From the IMG/VR virus record IMGVR_UViG_2713897161_000005: a DNA stretch of 45,139 bases. One strand, written 5' to 3'. The translations under genes and the position numbers were made by a program. This stretch comes from a virus. Its lineage: Duplodnaviria; Heunggongvirae; Uroviricota; Caudoviricetes. Below, one piece after another: positions 2,859-45,139 of the stretch (the stretch's first letter is position 1; each line of letters begins with the position of its first letter). The notes beneath the pieces were generated by a model. The model was given only the letters and a program-made list of their open reading frames with translations. It was not told the origin of the DNA and did not search any database.

Positions 2859-3606
2859 NNNNNNNNNNNNNNNNNNNNNNNNNNNNNNNNNNNNNNNNNN
2901 NNNNNNNNNNNNNNNNNNNNNNNNNNNNNNNNNNNNNNNNNNNNNNNNNNNNNNNNNNNNNNNNNNNNNNNNNNNNNNNNNNNNNNNNNNNNNNNNNNNN
3001 NNNNNNNNNNNNNNNNNNNNNNNNNNNNNNNNNNNNNNNNNNNNNNNNNNNNNNNNNNNNNNNNNNNNNNNNNNNNNNNNNNNNNNNNNNNNNNNNNNNN
3101 NNNNNNNNNNNNNNNNNNNNNNNNNNNNNNNNNNNNNNNNNNNNNNNNNNNNNNNNNNNNNNNNNNNNNNNNNNNNNNNNNNNNNNNNNNNNNNNNNNNN
3201 NNNNNNNNNNNNNNNNNNNNNNNNNNNNNNNNNNNNNNNNNNNNNNNNNNNNNNNNNNNNNNNNNNNNNNNNNNNNNNNNNNNNNNNNNNNNNNNNNNNN
3301 NNNNNNNNNNNNNNNNNNNNNNNNNNNNNNNNNNNNNNNNNNNNNNNNNNNNNNNNNNNNNNNNNNNNNNNNNNNNNNNNNNNNNNNNNNNNNNNNNNNN
3401 NNNNNNNNNNNNNNNNNNNNNNNNNNNNNNNNNNNNNNNNNNNNNNNNNNNNNNNNNNNNNNNNNNNNNNNNNNNNNNNNNNNNNNNNNNNNNNNNNNNN
3501 NNNNNNNNNNNNNNNNNNNNNNNNNNNNNNNNNNNNNNNNNNNNNNNNNNNNNNNNNNNNNNNNNNNNNNNNNNNNNNNNNNNNNNNNNNNNNNNNNNNN
3601 NNNNNN
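2859..3606. other. N-run (748 nt, unresolved or masked sequence)
   Basis: Continuous n characters; ORFs crossing it are artefacts. Confidence 0.99.
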
Positions 3607-3660: not shown

Positions 3661-4532
3661 TATGCCGCCCTTACAATGTAGTTAAATGCGATGTTGCGCG
3701 GTCGGTTTTCGTTCGCGGTTCTTGCAACTAACGAAGAATCGATACCTATTGTCTTATAATATATGTATGAAGATGATTCCGTTGCACTTGCGTAATATGT
3801 GATTCCCGCCTCTCCAGTAATTGTTATGGCACCACTGCCGGATGCTGATGCCCCCATAGAGTTATCTGTAACAGTACCACTTATTTTTTGCATCGCGTCA
3901 CTTTGCTGTGAAAGTAACGCCCGCCCTGAATCCACATTGCGCCCATCATCCCACCCACGAATGAATTCGCCGCGTAAATCAGGCAATTTATTTGTCGGAT
4001 AAACCTTTGCCAGTTCCGGGTATTCTTCAGCAGAAAAAGCCGCACCGTTGCATTTCAGCCAGCCAGTAGGCGGTGTGGCTGAAGGCCACGGAACAGGCAC
4101 ACCAACGGGTAATGCCGAACCTTCTCCCAAACCAAGGTATGAAAGAATATCTTTCCACCCGGTACCATTACTGTTTGGATCAGATAGATTTCCTTCTGTT
4201 GTGTTAATGAATATTCTTTCCCCATCGTTCGAGATGAGCATCGCCCCTGACGGATATCCAGAAATCTCCGAAGCAAATTCAGAATCAAAAGTATTCAGCG
4301 CCCCGGTGCTCGACCATCTACCCAGAGCAGAAAGTTCGTATAAAATTTGGTTCATATCCTGGCCTTTTGGTGGCAAACCGCCAGCAGATTTCAGGATCAT
4401 TGTTATTGGAGGAAACCCCTGTTCATACGATGCTGAGTTATCTCCTGCAGGGGTGGTTGGCAATATTGCCACTCTCTGTCCATTAACTCCAAATGGCTTA
4501 GGTTGTTTTTTAGGTGAGTCAGAACGATTCAT
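3660..4532 (-). CDS. Tail fiber protein (phage tail collar domain)
   Basis: 290 aa; contains the collar-type motif LPDLRGEFIRGWDDGR; last gene of the baseplate/fiber block. Confidence 0.7.
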   Translation of the reverse strand: MNRSDSPKKQPKPFGVNGQRVAILPTTPAGDNSASYEQGFPPITMILKSAGGLPPKGQDMNQILYELSALGRWSSTGALNTFDSEFASEISGYPSGAMLISNDGERIFINTTEGNLSDPNSNGTGWKDILSYLGLGEGSALPVGVPVPWPSATPPTGWLKCNGAAFSAEEYPELAKVYPTNKLPDLRGEFIRGWDDGRNVDSGRALLSQQSDAMQKISGTVTDNSMGASASGSGAITITGEAGITYYASATESSSYIYYKTIGIDSSLVARTANENRPRNIAFNYIVRAA

Positions 4533-28678: not shown

Positions 28679-29560
28679 NNNNNNNNNNNNNNNNNNNNNN
28701 NNNNNNNNNNNNNNNNNNNNNNNNNNNNNNNNNNNNNNNNNNNNNNNNNNNNNNNNNNNNNNNNNNNNNNNNNNNNNNNNNNNNNNNNNNNNNNNNNNNN
28801 NNNNNNNNNNNNNNNNNNNNNNNNNNNNNNNNNNNNNNNNNNNNNNNNNNNNNNNNNNNNNNNNNNNNNNNNNNNNNNNNNNNNNNNNNNNNNNNNNNNN
28901 NNNNNNNNNNNNNNNNNNNNNNNNNNNNNNNNNNNNNNNNNNNNNNNNNNNNNNNNNNNNNNNNNNNNNNNNNNNNNNNNNNNNNNNNNNNNNNNNNNNN
29001 NNNNNNNNNNNNNNNNNNNNNNNNNNNNNNNNNNNNNNNNNNNNNNNNNNNNNNNNNNNNNNNNNNNNNNNNNNNNNNNNNNNNNNNNNNNNNNNNNNNN
29101 NNNNNNNNNNNNNNNNNNNNNNNNNNNNNNNNNNNNNNNNNNNNNNNNNNNNNNNNNNNNNNNNNNNNNNNNNNNNNNNNNNNNNNNNNNNNNNNNNNNN
29201 NNNNNNNNNNNNNNNNNNNNNNNNNNNNNNNNNNNNNNNNNNNNNNNNNNNNNNNNNNNNNNNNNNNNNNNNNNNNNNNNNNNNNNNNNNNNNNNNNNNN
29301 NNNNNNNNNNNNNNNNNNNNNNNNNNNNNNNNNNNNNNNNNNNNNNNNNNNNNNNNNNNNNNNNNNNNNNNNNNNNNNNNNNNNNNNNNNNNNNNNNNNN
29401 NNNNNNNNNNNNNNNNNNNNNNNNNNNNNNNNNNNNNNNNNNNNNNNNNNNNNNNNNNNNNNNNNNNNNNNNNNNNNNNNNNNNNNNNNNNNNNNNNNNN
29501 NNNNNNNNNNNNNNNNNNNNNNNNNNNNNNNNNNNNNNNNNNNNNNNNNNNNNNNNNNNN
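28679..29560. other. N-run (882 nt, unresolved or masked) between the lysis cassette and packaging genes
   Basis: Continuous n characters; ORFs crossing it are artefacts. Confidence 0.99.
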
Positions 29561-29629
29561 CACTCCAGAAGTGATCACCACCCTGTCTACAGAGCCAGAT
29601 GTGAAGGATGATGAGTAAAATTATCGCTA

Positions 29630-30067
29630 TCATCGAAGGCATTGCGTCCTGATGTATTCCTGCAAGTAGTTAACCTGCGCGGTTATCCTGTCGATTCCAC
29701 TTCGGAGACGGTAATAATTGAGTTCAGCATCTGCTGTAAGTCTTGGGCTTTCTCCATCGCCCATGCTGCTGGCTCCGGTCGTTGGCTTTGCACAGGTGGC
29801 GGCGACTTGCAGGCGCTTACGACCAGCAGAAACATCAGCACGGAGGCTTTCGATAGTCGCGTTAGCATCAGCAAGCTCCTTTGTGTATCTGGCGTCGAGT
29901 TCTGCTACATCACGTTGACGCTTCTGCATATCAGCGATGATGGATGTGGCTTTATCGCGCTGGTCTTTGTAGGCGATGGCGTTATCACGGTAATGATTAA
30001 CAGCCCATGACAGGCAGACGATGATGCAGATAACCAGAGCGGAGATAATCGCGGTGACTCTGCTCAT
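29630..30067 (-). CDS. Rz: Spanin inner-membrane subunit Rz
   Basis: From ATG 30067 (overlaps the endolysin stop, ATGA): [31 protein letters not shown]... matches lambda Rz N-terminus from memory. Confidence 0.75.
29683..29874 (-). CDS. Rz1: Spanin outer-membrane lipoprotein Rz1 (embedded in Rz, +1 frame)
   Basis: 63-aa ORF wholly inside Rz; lipobox LVVSAC followed by a Pro-rich segment. Confidence 0.6.
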
Positions 30068-30567
30068 TGCTGCCCCCACAAACAGACTTCACGCTCAATA
30101 TCACGACGGGTCATCAGCCCTTTCCATTGCTTACCGCCAGCGTATGTCCAGCGACGTAGCTGGTCACATGCGCCTTTGATATCACCCTGGTTTATTTTGC
30201 GAAGAAGCGTCGATGTTCTGAAATTGCCAGCCCCCACGTTGTAGACGAACGAGTAAAGAGCGCCGCGCGTTGTTTCCGGTATATCGACTTTGATGTACGG
30301 GTTAATTTGTCTGGCGACCGTGGCAAGGTCTTTATTCAGGAGAGCTTTGCATTCTGCTTCGGTATACGTTTTACCGAGCATGATGTCTTTTCCTGTATGC
30401 CCGTAACATACAGTCCATACACCAACTATGTCTTTGTAAGGATTATGTCTCACACCTTCCAGACCATCGTTACCACTTGGGCCAGTGATTAACACAGATG
30501 CTATAGCAATAGCCCCGCCACTTATCGCCGCTATTACGCTATTTCGTAGTGCCGGTGACATTGCCAT
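30064..30567 (-). CDS. SAR endolysin (T4 lysozyme-like muramidase with N-terminal signal-anchor-release domain)
   Basis: Gly/Ala-rich weakly hydrophobic N-terminus ([19 protein letters not shown]), then E-x8-D-x5-T catalytic spacing ([17 protein letters not shown]). Confidence 0.75.
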
Positions 30568-30742
30568 TCAATCTGTCCTCGCGCTCTTTGCGCTTGTAGT
30601 ACCAGTTGATGCCAAATGTGCCGACAGTACAAAGAATACCAATGATGACAGCCCAGTCATTCAGGGAGAGAATGCCACCCATCGCAGTCAGTCCTCCGAA
30701 GCTGTAACTGAACCATTCTCTGATTTTGTCCATACGGTACAT
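30539..30742 (-). CDS. Holin (pinholin-like, dual-start motif)
   Basis: 67 aa with hydrophobic helices; N-terminus M-Y-R-M gives two in-frame starts (30742, 30733) separated by a basic residue; overlaps the endolysin 5' end. Confidence 0.6.
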
Positions 30743-31035
30743 GCTCTACCCCTTCATTGAGGGGATTTGCTCTATTTAATTAGGAATAAGGTCGATTACT
30801 GATAGAACAAATCCAGGCTACTGTGTTTAGTAATCAGATTTGTTCGTGACCGATATGCACGGGCAAAACGGCAGGAGGTTGTTAGCGCAACCTCTTGCCA
30901 CCCGCTTTCACGAAGCCAGCCATTGCGCTGGTTTTCTTTTATGCAAAGCACACCGCACCGTAGCCACAGCGGATAAGGTGATTATTTTTGTCTGTCTGGT
31001 ATTTGGTTTGATGTGCTTTCAGAAAGGTCGTGATT

Positions 31036-31071
31036 AAAACGCAAAAAGCCCCGAGCTATTAACTCAGGGCT
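31036..31071 (-). terminator. Intrinsic terminator ~55 nt downstream of the late promoter (tR'-like)
   Basis: Minus-strand RNA AGCCCUGAG-UUAAUAG-CUCGGGGCU (9 bp incl. one G-U) followed by UUUUUGCGUUUU. Confidence 0.55.
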
Positions 31072-31106
31072 TTATTTAACGAGTGCATTTATCCATCGTT
31101 GTGTCA

Positions 31107-31135
31107 AATTTACCCAACTTTATTCAAAAAGTCAA
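31107..31135 (-). promoter_or_regulatory. Late promoter PR' with Q-utilisation region
   Basis: Minus strand TTGACT (31130-35), 17-bp spacer, TAAATT (31107-12); the stretch beginning TTGACT...TAAATTTGAC..AACGATGG resembles lambda PR'/qut from memory. Confidence 0.6.
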
Positions 31136-31177
31136 TATAATGCCGTAAAGATGTTGCCATCCGTGGCAATCATGACG

Positions 31178-31801
31178 CTAACGTGTGACCGCATTCAAAA
31201 TGTTGTCTGCGATTGACTCTTCTTTGTGGCATTGCACCACCAGAGCGTCATACAGTGGCTTAACAGTGCGTGACCAGGTGGGTTGGGTAAGGTTTGGGAT
31301 TAGCATCGTTACAGCGCGATAAGCAGCGCTTGCTGGCATTCTTGAATAGCCGGCGCCTTTGCATCTTCCGCACTCTTTCTCAACAACTCTCCCCCACAGC
31401 TCTGTTTTTGCTATATCAACCGCACGACCTGTACCGTGGCAATCTCTGCATCTTGCGCCCGGCGTCGCGGCACTACGGCAATAATCCGCATAAGCGAATG
31501 TTGCGAGCACTTGCAGTACCTTTGCCTTAGTATTTCCTTCGAGCTTTGCCACACCACGGTATTTCCCCGATACCTTGTGTGCAAATTGCATCAGATAGTT
31601 GATAGCCTTTTGTTTGTCGTTCTGGCTGAGTTCGTGCTTACCACAGAATGCAGCCATGCCGAATCCGGCTTGTGATTGCGCCATCCCCATAGCAGCCATC
31701 ACATCAGTACCGGAAAGAGAGTCAGAAGCCGTAGCCCGTGGTGAGTCGCTCATCATCGGGCTTTTTGGCGAATGAAATTTAGCTACGCTTTCGAGTCTCA
31801 T
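31178..31801 (-). CDS. Q: Late gene antiterminator Q (lambda-type)
   Basis: 207-aa translation (MRLESVAKFHSPKSPMMSDSPRATASD...CGRCKGAGYSR...) is essentially lambda Q by my recollection. Confidence 0.85.
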   Translation of the reverse strand: MRLESVAKFHSPKSPMMSDSPRATASDSLSGTDVMAAMGMAQSQAGFGMAAFCGKHELSQNDKQKAINYLMQFAHKVSGKYRGVAKLEGNTKAKVLQVLATFAYADYCRSAATPGARCRDCHGTGRAVDIAKTELWGRVVEKECGRCKGAGYSRMPASAAYRAVTMLIPNLTQPTWSRTVKPLYDALVVQCHKEESIADNILNAVTR

Positions 31802-31986
31802 CGTCTTCCCCTCTTGCCCTGTTTGACCATCAGGACGCCGTTAACTATTACGTGACGCTCGCCTTTGCTGTCTCGGTTGTACTTGAGCACTGTTCCTCTT
31901 GCGCAGGAAAGCATCCTTGCCACTTCGGTCTGATTGCCTCGTGTATGGATAAGAAGCTCTGGTATCGTTTGAATTGTGGCGTTCAT
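31798..31986 (-). CDS. ninH: NinH-like small DNA-binding protein
   Basis: 62 aa; ...GNQTEVARMLSCARGTVLKY... resembles lambda NinH; directly upstream of Q. Confidence 0.55.
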   Translation of the reverse strand: MNATIQTIPELLIHTRGNQTEVARMLSCARGTVLKYNRDSKGERHVIVNGVLMVKQGKRGRR

Positions 31987-32345
31987 GCGTTCTCCAGTTC
32001 GGTGATTTTTATTCCAAGCCTTCCGCCTGGTACTTTCACACCACGAATTACGCGAATGTCATCGAATTGCTCGTCGTCTTCCGCAAATCCAGCGTGGATA
32101 AGGGAGTCGAGTAAACCTTTCAGGATGTTGTCGAGGTCGCGGCGGCGGGAGTCTGGAACGTCTGCGATGACTTTGATACGGAGTCGTGATTTGGTGAAAA
32201 TGTCTAACTTGAGTTGGCGGATGATTTTCTGAACGTCTTTTCTGTATTTCTGGCCTTTATCGCTAATGTAATATTGGCTTCCTCGTCTTCGCCAGTAGGT
32301 GTTCAGCGACGGCGGGTATGGAAGCACAAACTGATATTCGTTCAT
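31983..32345 (-). CDS. rusA: Holliday junction resolvase RusA
   Basis: 120 aa; MNEYQFVLPYPPSLNTYW...RRRDLDN...GGRLGIKITE matches the RusA pattern. Confidence 0.75.
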   Translation of the reverse strand: MNEYQFVLPYPPSLNTYWRRRGSQYYISDKGQKYRKDVQKIIRQLKLDIFTKSRLRIKVIADVPDSRRRDLDNILKGLLDSLIHAGFAEDDEQFDDIRVIRGVKVPGGRLGIKITELENA

Positions 32346-34080: not shown

Positions 34081-34720
34081 NNNNNNNNNNNNNNNNNNNN
34101 NNNNNNNNNNNNNNNNNNNNNNNNNNNNNNNNNNNNNNNNNNNNNNNNNNNNNNNNNNNNNNNNNNNNNNNNNNNNNNNNNNNNNNNNNNNNNNNNNNNN
34201 NNNNNNNNNNNNNNNNNNNNNNNNNNNNNNNNNNNNNNNNNNNNNNNNNNNNNNNNNNNNNNNNNNNNNNNNNNNNNNNNNNNNNNNNNNNNNNNNNNNN
34301 NNNNNNNNNNNNNNNNNNNNNNNNNNNNNNNNNNNNNNNNNNNNNNNNNNNNNNNNNNNNNNNNNNNNNNNNNNNNNNNNNNNNNNNNNNNNNNNNNNNN
34401 NNNNNNNNNNNNNNNNNNNNNNNNNNNNNNNNNNNNNNNNNNNNNNNNNNNNNNNNNNNNNNNNNNNNNNNNNNNNNNNNNNNNNNNNNNNNNNNNNNNN
34501 NNNNNNNNNNNNNNNNNNNNNNNNNNNNNNNNNNNNNNNNNNNNNNNNNNNNNNNNNNNNNNNNNNNNNNNNNNNNNNNNNNNNNNNNNNNNNNNNNNNN
34601 NNNNNNNNNNNNNNNNNNNNNNNNNNNNNNNNNNNNNNNNNNNNNNNNNNNNNNNNNNNNNNNNNNNNNNNNNNNNNNNNNNNNNNNNNNNNNNNNNNNN
34701 NNNNNNNNNNNNNNNNNNNN
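34081..34720. other. N-run (640 nt, unresolved or masked) inside the nin region
   Basis: Continuous n characters. Confidence 0.99.
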
Positions 34721-43454: not shown

Positions 43455-44162
43455 ATGGATTTGAACAAATTCGATGAGCCATTCAGCCCTGAAGATATCG
43501 AATGGCGAATACAGCAAAGCGGTAAAACACGCGATGGCAAAGTGTGGGCTATGGTGCTGGCTTATGTCACGAACCGGGCAATCATGAAACGCCTGGACGA
43601 TGTTTGCGGCAAAGCAGGATGGCGCAATGAATACCGCGATATTCCCAACAACGGCGGAGTTGAATGCGGCATATCAATCAAGATTGATTCCGAATGGGTA
43701 ACCAAATGGGATGCCGCTGAAAACACGCAGGTAGAAGCAGTAAAAGGTGGTCGTTCCGGTGCAATGAAGCGTGCTGCCGTTCAATGGGGAATAGGTCGGT
43801 ATCTGTATAACCTTGAGGAAGGTTTCGCACAAACATCTCTCGACAAAAAGCAGGGATGGCACAGGGCAAAACTCAAGGATGGAACAGGATTTTACTGGCT
43901 CCCTCCATCGCTGCCAGGCTGGGCAATCCCAGCATCAGATAACAAACCATCACCAGAAAATACCAACCAGAAATCTCCATCGGTTGACTGCGAACAAATC
44001 CTGAAAGACTTCAGCGATTATGCAGCGACAGAAACTGACAAGAAAAAACTCATCGAGCGTTATCAGCATGACTGGCAATTAATGGCTGGAAACGAGGAGG
44101 CGCAGGCTAAATGCGTTCAGGTAATGAACATCAGAGTTAACGAGCTAAAACAGGCGGCATAA
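43455..44162 (+). CDS. Single-strand annealing protein (Rad52/Sak-like, putative)
   Basis: 235 aa immediately upstream of ssb, occupying the bet/erf position; N-terminal region pattern resembles Rad52-type phage recombinases (from memory). Confidence 0.5.
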   Translation: MDLNKFDEPFSPEDIEWRIQQSGKTRDGKVWAMVLAYVTNRAIMKRLDDVCGKAGWRNEYRDIPNNGGVECGISIKIDSEWVTKWDAAENTQVEAVKGGRSGAMKRAAVQWGIGRYLYNLEEGFAQTSLDKKQGWHRAKLKDGTGFYWLPPSLPGWAIPASDNKPSPENTNQKSPSVDCEQILKDFSDYAATETDKKKLIERYQHDWQLMAGNEEAQAKCVQVMNIRVNELKQAA

Positions 44163-44678
44163 ATGGCAAGCAGAGGCGTAAATAAGGTGATCATTATTGG
44201 TCGCCTTGGGCATGATCCAGAAATCAGATATTCACCATCAGGAACGGCATTTGCAAACCTTACAGTTGCTACGTCAGAACAATGGCGTGATAAGCAAACT
44301 GGAGAGCAAAAGGAGCAGACGGAGTGGCACCGCGTGGTAATGAGCGGGAAACTGGCAGAAATTGCCAGCGAATATCTGCGAAAAGGCTCTGAGGTTTATC
44401 TTGAAGGAAAATTGCGGACAAGAAAATGGCAGGATCAAAGCGGACAGGATCGGTTCACTACCGAAGTCATCGTGGGCGTTGGTGGAACCATGCAAATGCT
44501 TGGTGGCAAGCAAGGAGGCAATGAACAGTCTTCACCTCAGCGAAATAATGGTCAGCAACAAAGACAGCAACCTCAGCAGCAGGGAAATCACAGCGAACCA
44601 CCTATGGATTTTGACGACGATATCCCCTTTGCACCAGTAACTCTCCCCTTCCCTCGTCACGCTATTCACGCAATTTAA
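44163..44678 (+). CDS. ssb: Single-stranded DNA-binding protein
   Basis: 171 aa; OB-fold N-terminus, Gly/Gln-rich linker, acidic C-terminal tail ...DDDIPF. Confidence 0.85.
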
Positions 44679-44691
44679 TCAGGAGAAAATC

Positions 44692-44988
44692 ATGCCAGCG
44701 CCTCAGTATGGTGCAGATGACCCGCGCCGCTGTTCCGGCAATTCCGTATCGGAGGTGCTGGATAAATTCAGAAAAAACTACGATCGGATAATGTCGCTAC
44801 CGCAGGAAACGAAAGAGGAAAAGGAATTTCGCCATTGTATATGGCTTGCAGAGAAAGAAGAACGCGAGCGAATTTACCAGACATCAATCCGACCATTCCG
44901 CAAAGCCACATATACCCACTTCCCTGAATATATCGACCCGCGCCTGCGTAATTACCGCTCACGCTATGGCGCTATCAGTAATGACTGA
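44692..44988 (+). CDS. Hypothetical protein (98 aa)
   Basis: ORF downstream of ssb. Confidence 0.4.
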
Positions 44989-44999
44989 GGAATTTACCA

Positions 45000-45139
45000 T
45001 GAGAGGACTTGCATACAATCCCGGCATTCTTCCGGCAGAAATGATTATTCGCCAACGCGTAAAGCCAATGCCATCGAGAGATGAATTGCTTAAGAGAAAT
45101 TCTTTTCCATCAGTGAATCAAAACAAATATCTGAATGCG
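45000..45139 (+). CDS. Hypothetical protein, 5' fragment (continues past window end)
   Basis: ATG at 45000, open to the end of the window. Confidence 0.3.

Follow-up and report, generated by a model that had tools for sequence, protein, structure and literature searches.

How a lambdoid phage comes to combine the late-gene antiterminator of lambda and the sequence 5' of the lambda holin gene with a holin and an endolysin foreign to lambda is the question raised by a stretch of 45,139 nucleotides from a virus of the class Caudoviricetes (IMG/VR record IMGVR_UViG_2713897161_000005), referred to in its full length as the window. An earlier note, made from the letters of this stretch, had described a mosaic junction at the holin start, where lambda-like sequence would give way at base-pair resolution to an unrelated lysis cassette, with Rz and Rz1 again lambda-like downstream. 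According to the ORF list and Pfam, all features concerned, namely Q, holin, endolysin, Rz and Rz1, are carried by the minus strand, to which the coordinates below refer unless indicated otherwise. The region very probably marks where the late operon begins in a lambdoid prophage residing in an Escherichia chromosome, and its lysis genes are appropriately named PS34/ST104-type class II holin, R21-type SAR endolysin and HK97-type spanin rather than lambda S, R and Rz.

Comparison with lambda (J02459) by blastn yielded exactly three matching segments (31811-31078, 30915-30747 and 30067-29819), the first of which corresponds to lambda 43875..44609 with 95.8% identity over 735 bp and comprises Q as well as pR' up to about +20. 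Q (31178..31801; 207 aa) is 99.5% identical to its lambda counterpart at the amino acid level and qualifies as a Q-family antiterminator, being a PF03589 gene (Antiterm, 193.5 bits) directly 5' of a late promoter. Consensus scanning and folding predict a sigma-70 promoter and an intrinsic terminator ahead of the lysis genes. The promoter is of the pR' type (TTGACT-17-TAAATT; 31107..31135), aligns together with its qut region with pR' of lambda, HK97 and Emek and retains the AACGAT pause element. The qut region deviates from lambda at few positions and is identical to that of HK97 and Emek, the equivalent site being annotated as qut in the Emek record. The terminator, of the tR' type, is located about 35-60 nt 3' of pR' (31045..31073) and consists of a 13-bp stem followed by a T run; it folds at -20.6 kcal/mol (z = -5.2; 0 of 200 shuffled sequences were as stable), and its equivalent is annotated as a terminator in Emek, just after the qut site.

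Between pR' and the second lambda-like segment, a 162-bp spacer (30916..31077) of the HK97/P22-like type takes the place of lambda 44610-45014. It has no blastn match to lambda and is 90-100% identical to HK97, Emek and phiKp_30, while lambda features 405 bp at this position, encompassing the rest of 6S RNA, tR' and orf-64; the tR' terminator of the spacer is much shorter than that in the leader of lambda. An apparent similarity to lambda at 31077-31006 turned out to be an artefact of a global-alignment identity plot, in which cheap gaps raised the background to 50-70%, and the segment limits given here were taken from blastn segments and MAFFT blocks in place of that plot. An Rfam search of 29562-32000 returned nothing at E <= 1. 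A scan of the plus strand additionally found a terminator-like hairpin with a T run at 30912-30935, antisense to the late operon and located precisely where the HK97-type spacer meets the sequence that follows.

This following sequence is a late leader directly 5' of the holin gene (30747..30915), which corresponds to the stretch 5' of S in lambda (45015..45181; 96.4% over 169 bp, E 2e-76 by blastn). It is common to lambda, HK97 and P22-like phages, in which it is 92-100% identical and occurs behind two Q types and together with two holin types. Within the leader, a GC-rich hairpin with an 11-12-bp stem is followed by GUUUUG (30870..30899) and is present in 104 of 125 leaders of lambda, HK97 and P22-like phages, with folding energies of -13 to -24 kcal/mol. 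It could constitute a weak second terminator or an RNA structure; clear covariation was not found among the 125 leaders because the variable stem position is mostly a mismatch.

At the holin start, multiple alignment shows that the sequence ...AAATAGAGCAAATCCCCT is common to lambda, HK97 and the window, and that uninterrupted identity stops at T 30760. Past this position the sequences part in the loop of a hairpin, agree again in GGGGTA (30752-30747) and differ at three of the next four bases; then comes the ATG (30742-30740), 3' of which the alignment reveals no similarity to lambda or HK97. The blastn match to HK97 stops at 30762 and that to lambda at 30747, and lambda has no match in 30746-30068. 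Uninterrupted identity is lost inside a hairpin that adjoins the holin ribosome-binding site. This sdi-like hairpin, CCCCU-CAAUGA-AGGGG (30749..30764), the 3' arm of which abuts or overlaps the Shine-Dalgarno sequence of the holin gene, was found by scanning and is also present in the minimum-energy structure of a 51-nt fold, which at -12.4 kcal/mol (z = -1.75) is not significant compared with shuffled sequences; at its position lambda has CCCCUUAUUGGGGG.

The left joint, from lambda/HK97-type to PS34-type sequence, is thus located at 30740..30760, and the crossover can be placed only within these ~20 nt, since the patchy similarity of GGGGTA and ATG runs through the hairpin and Shine-Dalgarno region. 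Among the compared sequences, no parental pair with the 67-aa holin (>90% identity) behind an unrelated leader was present, for which reason the crossover cannot be fixed from the holin side either; in its more distant relatives (HK225 and a Klebsiella phage) the N-terminus of the holin has diverged. Likewise, the phages S137, Oslo and SPN9CC, despite their different Q, do not improve the resolution because they share the same leader and the same joint. The earlier note consequently proved right in its core, and far beyond chance: near-identity to lambda, the absence of which was to count against it, is present across Q as well as in ~30750-30900, the lambda match that it gave up to the end of the shared sequence agrees with the alignment, and divergence towards a holin and an endolysin that are not lambda S and R is sharp at the ribosome-binding site. 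Its base-pair resolution has to be given up, and to its lambda-like parts must be added the 162 bp of HK97/P22-type sequence between Q and the leader.

The holin gene (30539..30742) encodes a class II holin of 67 aa with the dual start M1-Y-R-M4, which is assigned to the HP1 family by a PF16080 match of 75.1 bits over residues 5-53 (cutoff 28.8). The protein is 98.5% identical to PS34 gp13 and occurs in identical form in ~20 viral contigs. Neither the holin nor the endolysin has a blastp match to lambda S and R at E <= 10; moreover, the holin scores 19.5 bits against the S21 pinholin family PF04971, below the cutoff of 26, and has no blastp match to S21 of SfI. A Kyte-Doolittle plot displays one clear hydrophobic segment (~residues 30-48) and one weak, Gly-rich segment (~9-27), and the C-terminus, KRKEREDR, is charged. 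The weak Gly-rich first segment in conjunction with an SAR endolysin suggests a pinholin-like operation, though the protein does not belong to the S21 family.

Lambda S107/S105 and S21 71/68 are antiholin/holin pairs. By analogy with these, the small hairpin immediately in front of the Shine-Dalgarno sequence, together with the in-frame starts M1 and M4, would probably give rise to a longer antiholin and a shorter holin. In favour of this timing model, the distant relatives in HK225 and a Klebsiella phage begin with M-T-R/K-M, which preserves the dual start, and their Shine-Dalgarno sequence is likewise directly preceded by a hairpin, the 5-bp stem of which shows a compensatory change (TCCGA/TCGGA versus TCCGT/ACGGA). 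On the other hand, the role of the hairpin is weakened by the finding that the 51-nt stretch does not fold significantly better than its shuffled versions.

The endolysin gene (30064..30567; 167 aa), the first 29 nt of which lie within the 3' end of the holin gene, encodes an SAR endolysin of the phage-21 (R21/RrrD) type. SfI and DLP12 served as stand-ins for phage 21 (M65239), and PDB 3HDE for R21. The assignment to the R21-type GH24 enzymes is given by the PF00959 match (162 bits), the similarity to phage-21 lysozyme 3HDE (E 7.8e-103, residues 3-167) and to RrrD 4ZPU (E 1.1e-103), and an identity of 93.9% to SfI R. Residues 10-29 represent a weakly hydrophobic, Gly/Ala-rich N-terminal segment of the SAR kind, for which release is predicted, and this segment is identical to that of R in SfI and DLP12 from a 13-residue stretch onward. 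In the alignment, high identity to SfI/DLP12 begins at ~30521, which is ~15 codons into the gene.

When the holin and endolysin DNA (679 bp) was used as query, ~50 records covered the whole length at 93-97%, mostly Salmonella P22-like and related phages, plus phiKp_30. In many E. coli, Shigella and Stx phages, including SfI, the Stx2 phages and lambda-like 'ev' phages, the match starts only at query position 181 or 222, and corresponds to the endolysin alone (~90-95%) behind an S21-type holin. Judged from these alignments, the first ~15 endolysin codons, which overlap the holin frame, travel with the holin type, and the cassette is itself a mosaic with a second joint at the 5' end of the endolysin gene (~30521-30562), from where phage-21-type endolysin genes behind S21-type holins are >90% identical. 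Inside the endolysin gene, a patch of ~75 bp (30406-30480) is 78-92% identical to PS34, Emek, phiKp_30 and SfI between flanks of 94-100%; this patch may be a micro-mosaic derived from another allele.

The Rz gene (29630..30067) encodes an i-spanin of 145 aa (PF03245, 125.4 bits), and its ATG overlaps the stop codon of the endolysin gene (ATGA). A third joint lies exactly at this ATG, where similarity to lambda and HK97 returns at ATGAGCAGAGTCACC. The third blastn segment, 30067..29819, matches the 5' part of lambda Rz with 79%, comprising ~110 nt of 94-100% identity followed by sequence of ~78% and lower. The o-spanin Rz1 (29683..29868; 61 aa; PF06085, 72.4 bits) is embedded in Rz in the +1 frame and has the lipobox VSAC. 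At the protein level, Rz is 96.6% identical to HK97 versus 58.6% to lambda, and Rz1 95.1% versus 42.9%, so that both belong to the HK97 family of two-component embedded spanins, in agreement with Kongari et al. 2018 (PMC6139136), where the o-spanins of PS34 and Emek are assigned to the HK97 family. In addition, Rz1 of SfI (Rz/Rz1 at 2495-2980 of the compared sequence) looks hybrid, with an HK97-type signal peptide and a lambda-type mature part, which points to another joint inside the embedded gene, at about window position 29825.

The picture of an unrelated cassette followed by lambda-like spanins therefore needs revision on two counts: the holin-endolysin unit is unlike lambda S and R, yet its endolysin is of the phage-21 type and the unit contains a joint of its own; and the lambda likeness of the spanin genes is confined to the first ~110 nt of Rz, beyond which they are HK97-type.

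Among known phages, Salmonella phage PS34 (genes 23, 13, 19 and 15), vB_SemP_Emek and Klebsiella phage phiKp_30 exhibit the same gene order and joints as the window, namely lambda-type Q, short tR', leader, 67-aa holin, R21-type endolysin and HK97-type Rz/Rz1, with DNA identities of 92.9-96.8% over the region. Collinearity between phiKp_30 and the window extends over 3001 bp (32634-29637) with 96.8% identity; in PS34 and Emek it reaches from Q to Rz and is interrupted by a 90-bp insert. This insert, orf30, is situated between endolysin and Rz in PS34 and Emek (3676-3763 and 3235-3330, respectively, of the compared sequences), and is lacking in the window (site 30064-30067), phiKp_30 and SfI. 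The genes 5' of Q in the window (roi, DUF1364, rusA and ninH) are of the HK97/phiKp_30 type, and not of the P22 type. HK97 (NC_002167, gp69-gp72) is collinear with the window from the nin genes to the leader (32634-30762; 95.6%) and again over 30067-29637 (96.5%), but between these flanks it carries a lambda-type S holin and an R transglycosylase, unlike the window. On these sequence comparisons HK97 is a better reference for the flanks than lambda, since lambda is devoid of the 162-bp middle segment and differs in the 3' half of Rz and in Rz1.

The resemblance to lambda comprises Q, pR'/qut, the 169-nt leader, the layout of hairpin and dual start at the holin gene and the first ~110 nt of Rz, while lambda differs in its class I holin S, its transglycosylase R, its 405-bp spacer and its Rz/Rz1. 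With the cassette of phage 21, DLP12 and SfI the window shares the R21-type SAR endolysin and a small, putatively two-segment holin upstream of it, though the holin of the window belongs to PF16080 and not to PF04971, and the first ~15 endolysin codons differ. Q, tRNA genes and leader of the phage-21 type are absent from the window.

Further evidence on the age of the joint comes from its distribution. A 19-mer of the leader was located at >120 loci in viral contigs, and the 118 sequences that extend far enough downstream, among them the window and five reference phages, were classified by the holin that follows. The leader precedes a lambda-S-type holin in 92 and the 67-aa type in 26 of these 118 sequences, a third type being found in none, and each type has a single fixed joint, the sequence of which is the same apart from a loop base. 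In the 62 loci of which the flanks are complete, lambda S-type holins are paired with a lambda-type R with one exception, and the 67-aa holin is paired with an R21-type endolysin throughout; Q type, middle segment and Rz 3' type combine freely. The joint of the window recurs, with at most 1-3 loop bases different, in PS34 (AJ011580), Emek, phiKp_30 and SPN9CC/S137/Oslo, and it is present in most of the 26 survey sequences with the 67-aa holin. SPN9CC, S137 and Oslo possess a different, shorter Q and two tRNA genes, yet the same leader and leader-holin joint.

Among 5426 complete E. coli genomes, 27 carry at least 80% of the arrangement at ~97% identity, and none reaches at least 99% over the full region. 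The exact 36-mer across the joint is absent from 185,579 species-representative genomes, which implies that the host genome has no representative there or that the representatives are without this prophage. The joint is thus old and inherited and did not arise in this genome; the recombination boundary claimed at the outset is a real module boundary, though not the trace of an event in this particular phage. Its occurrence in many other phages makes it an ordinary case of textbook phage gene shuffling, and this lambdoid module boundary is already known in the sense that it has been contained in database phages since the PS34 entry AJ011580. A literature search returned general treatments and none of exactly this joint.

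The remainder of the window places this region in its prophage. The early region resembles the E. coli lambdoid phages N7, mEp043, IME10 and Sf101, and the lysis region is likewise ordinary for E. coli lambdoid phages. A search of 50,697 deposited phage records with the virion-structure/late region (3700-28600) yielded hardly any close match; the best, to a Vibrio phage, covers 9% of the query with 70% identity. Positions 1-2850 represent the chromosomal yfdC / tRNA-Arg (argW) / intS locus with ~97% identity to the best of the 5426 E. coli genomes, a value which may indicate a host from a divergent Escherichia lineage, and intS adjoins the tail end of the prophage, which points to another element, or what remains of one, at argW. 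Three runs of masked N occupy 2859-3606 (748 bases), 28679-29560 (882 bases) and 34081-34720 (640 bases); since the second starts ~70 bp 3' of the Rz stop codon, the gene after the lysis cassette is unreadable.

Judging from the anatomy and from lambda, Q would load on RNA polymerase at pR'/qut, and the modified polymerase would read through the short tR' terminator and the ~170-nt leader to transcribe a four-gene lysis cassette comprising the class II holin, the SAR endolysin, Rz and the embedded Rz1. As to the origin of this arrangement, the holin-endolysin unit was probably exchanged as a whole by homologous recombination in the leader (30747-30915) and in the ~110 nt at the 5' end of Rz (~29960-30067), an exchange for which phage Rad52-type or host recombinases would be responsible. 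The product would then have spread among phages of E. coli, Salmonella and Klebsiella, with later exchanges affecting the Q type, the tR' segment, the holin alone versus the phage-21 cassette, and the 3' half of Rz/Rz1. The leader and the 5' end of Rz, which flank the unit, are nearly identical in phages with different units, and holin and endolysin behave as linked pairs across loci. Homologous exchange of the unit fits experiments in which lambda gained R and Rz of the DLP12 prophage by homology-driven recombination via short, diverged homologies and yielded viable recombinants (PMC3945230), as well as the description of P22-like Salmonella phages, among which three types of holin without homology to one another and three types of lysin occur as exchangeable cassettes (PMC2629481). 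Taken as a whole, the explanation by an inherited lambdoid cassette exchange between conserved flanks, read by Q, is considered highly probable.

Alternatively, the unit might have been joined illegitimately at a random point and retained since it lies between functional units, as in the model of Hendrix, the flanks being alike by recent ancestry. The abrupt change from 96% identity to no similarity at a gene boundary is what selected random joins predict, and ~70% of temperate-phage mosaics are without any trace of flanking homology (PMC3945230). Such an origin is nonetheless unlikely here, for the unit is bordered on both sides by stretches in which phages with different cassettes are 94-100% identical, the same leader stands before exactly two holin types with one fixed joint each, and residual similarity in hairpin arms, GGGGTA and ATG spacing extends across the joint. 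Both holin genes have a hairpin, a Shine-Dalgarno sequence that contains GGGG, equal spacing and a basic residue in their dual start, which could be taken to mean that no exchange occurred at the holin start and that both genes and their hairpins descend from one ancestor, diverged past recognition behind a conserved leader. This reading is very improbable: the two holins fall into separate Pfam families and topological classes (PF16080 with 67 aa and two putative segments versus lambda S with 107 aa and class I) with no blastp match, identity falls from 96% to none within ~20 nt while the flanks differ by 4%, and the holin relatives in HK225 and Klebsiella phages have unrelated upstream regions and Q genes. 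Finally, the masked N runs in the window and the lack of a complete E. coli genome with at least 99% identity over the full region would be compatible with an assembly or chimera artefact of the source contig; with the arrangement collinear at 96-97% in phiKp_30, Emek, PS34, 27 E. coli chromosomes and about two dozen IMG/VR contigs, the probability of such an artefact is practically negligible.

Exchange of an inherited cassette between conserved flanks hence remains the preferred explanation, and a further proposal concerns the leader itself. It is conceivable, though rather doubtful, that the ~170 nt at 30747-30915 constitute a maintained cis-acting element and not merely recently shared DNA, the hairpins of which would control read-through and holin translation while the leader serves as a docking site for alternative holin cassettes. 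The sdi hairpin would then be chimeric, with a 5' arm from the lambda-type leader and a 3' arm that came with the incoming holin, and the crossover would have rebuilt a working regulatory hairpin.

In summary, the locus is a clear-cut case of nested exchange of cassettes between flanks that are conserved in lambdoid phages, with little import beyond annotation. Since it precedes exactly two holin types with one fixed joint each, the leader represents a handy natural substrate for experiments on recombination and translational control.
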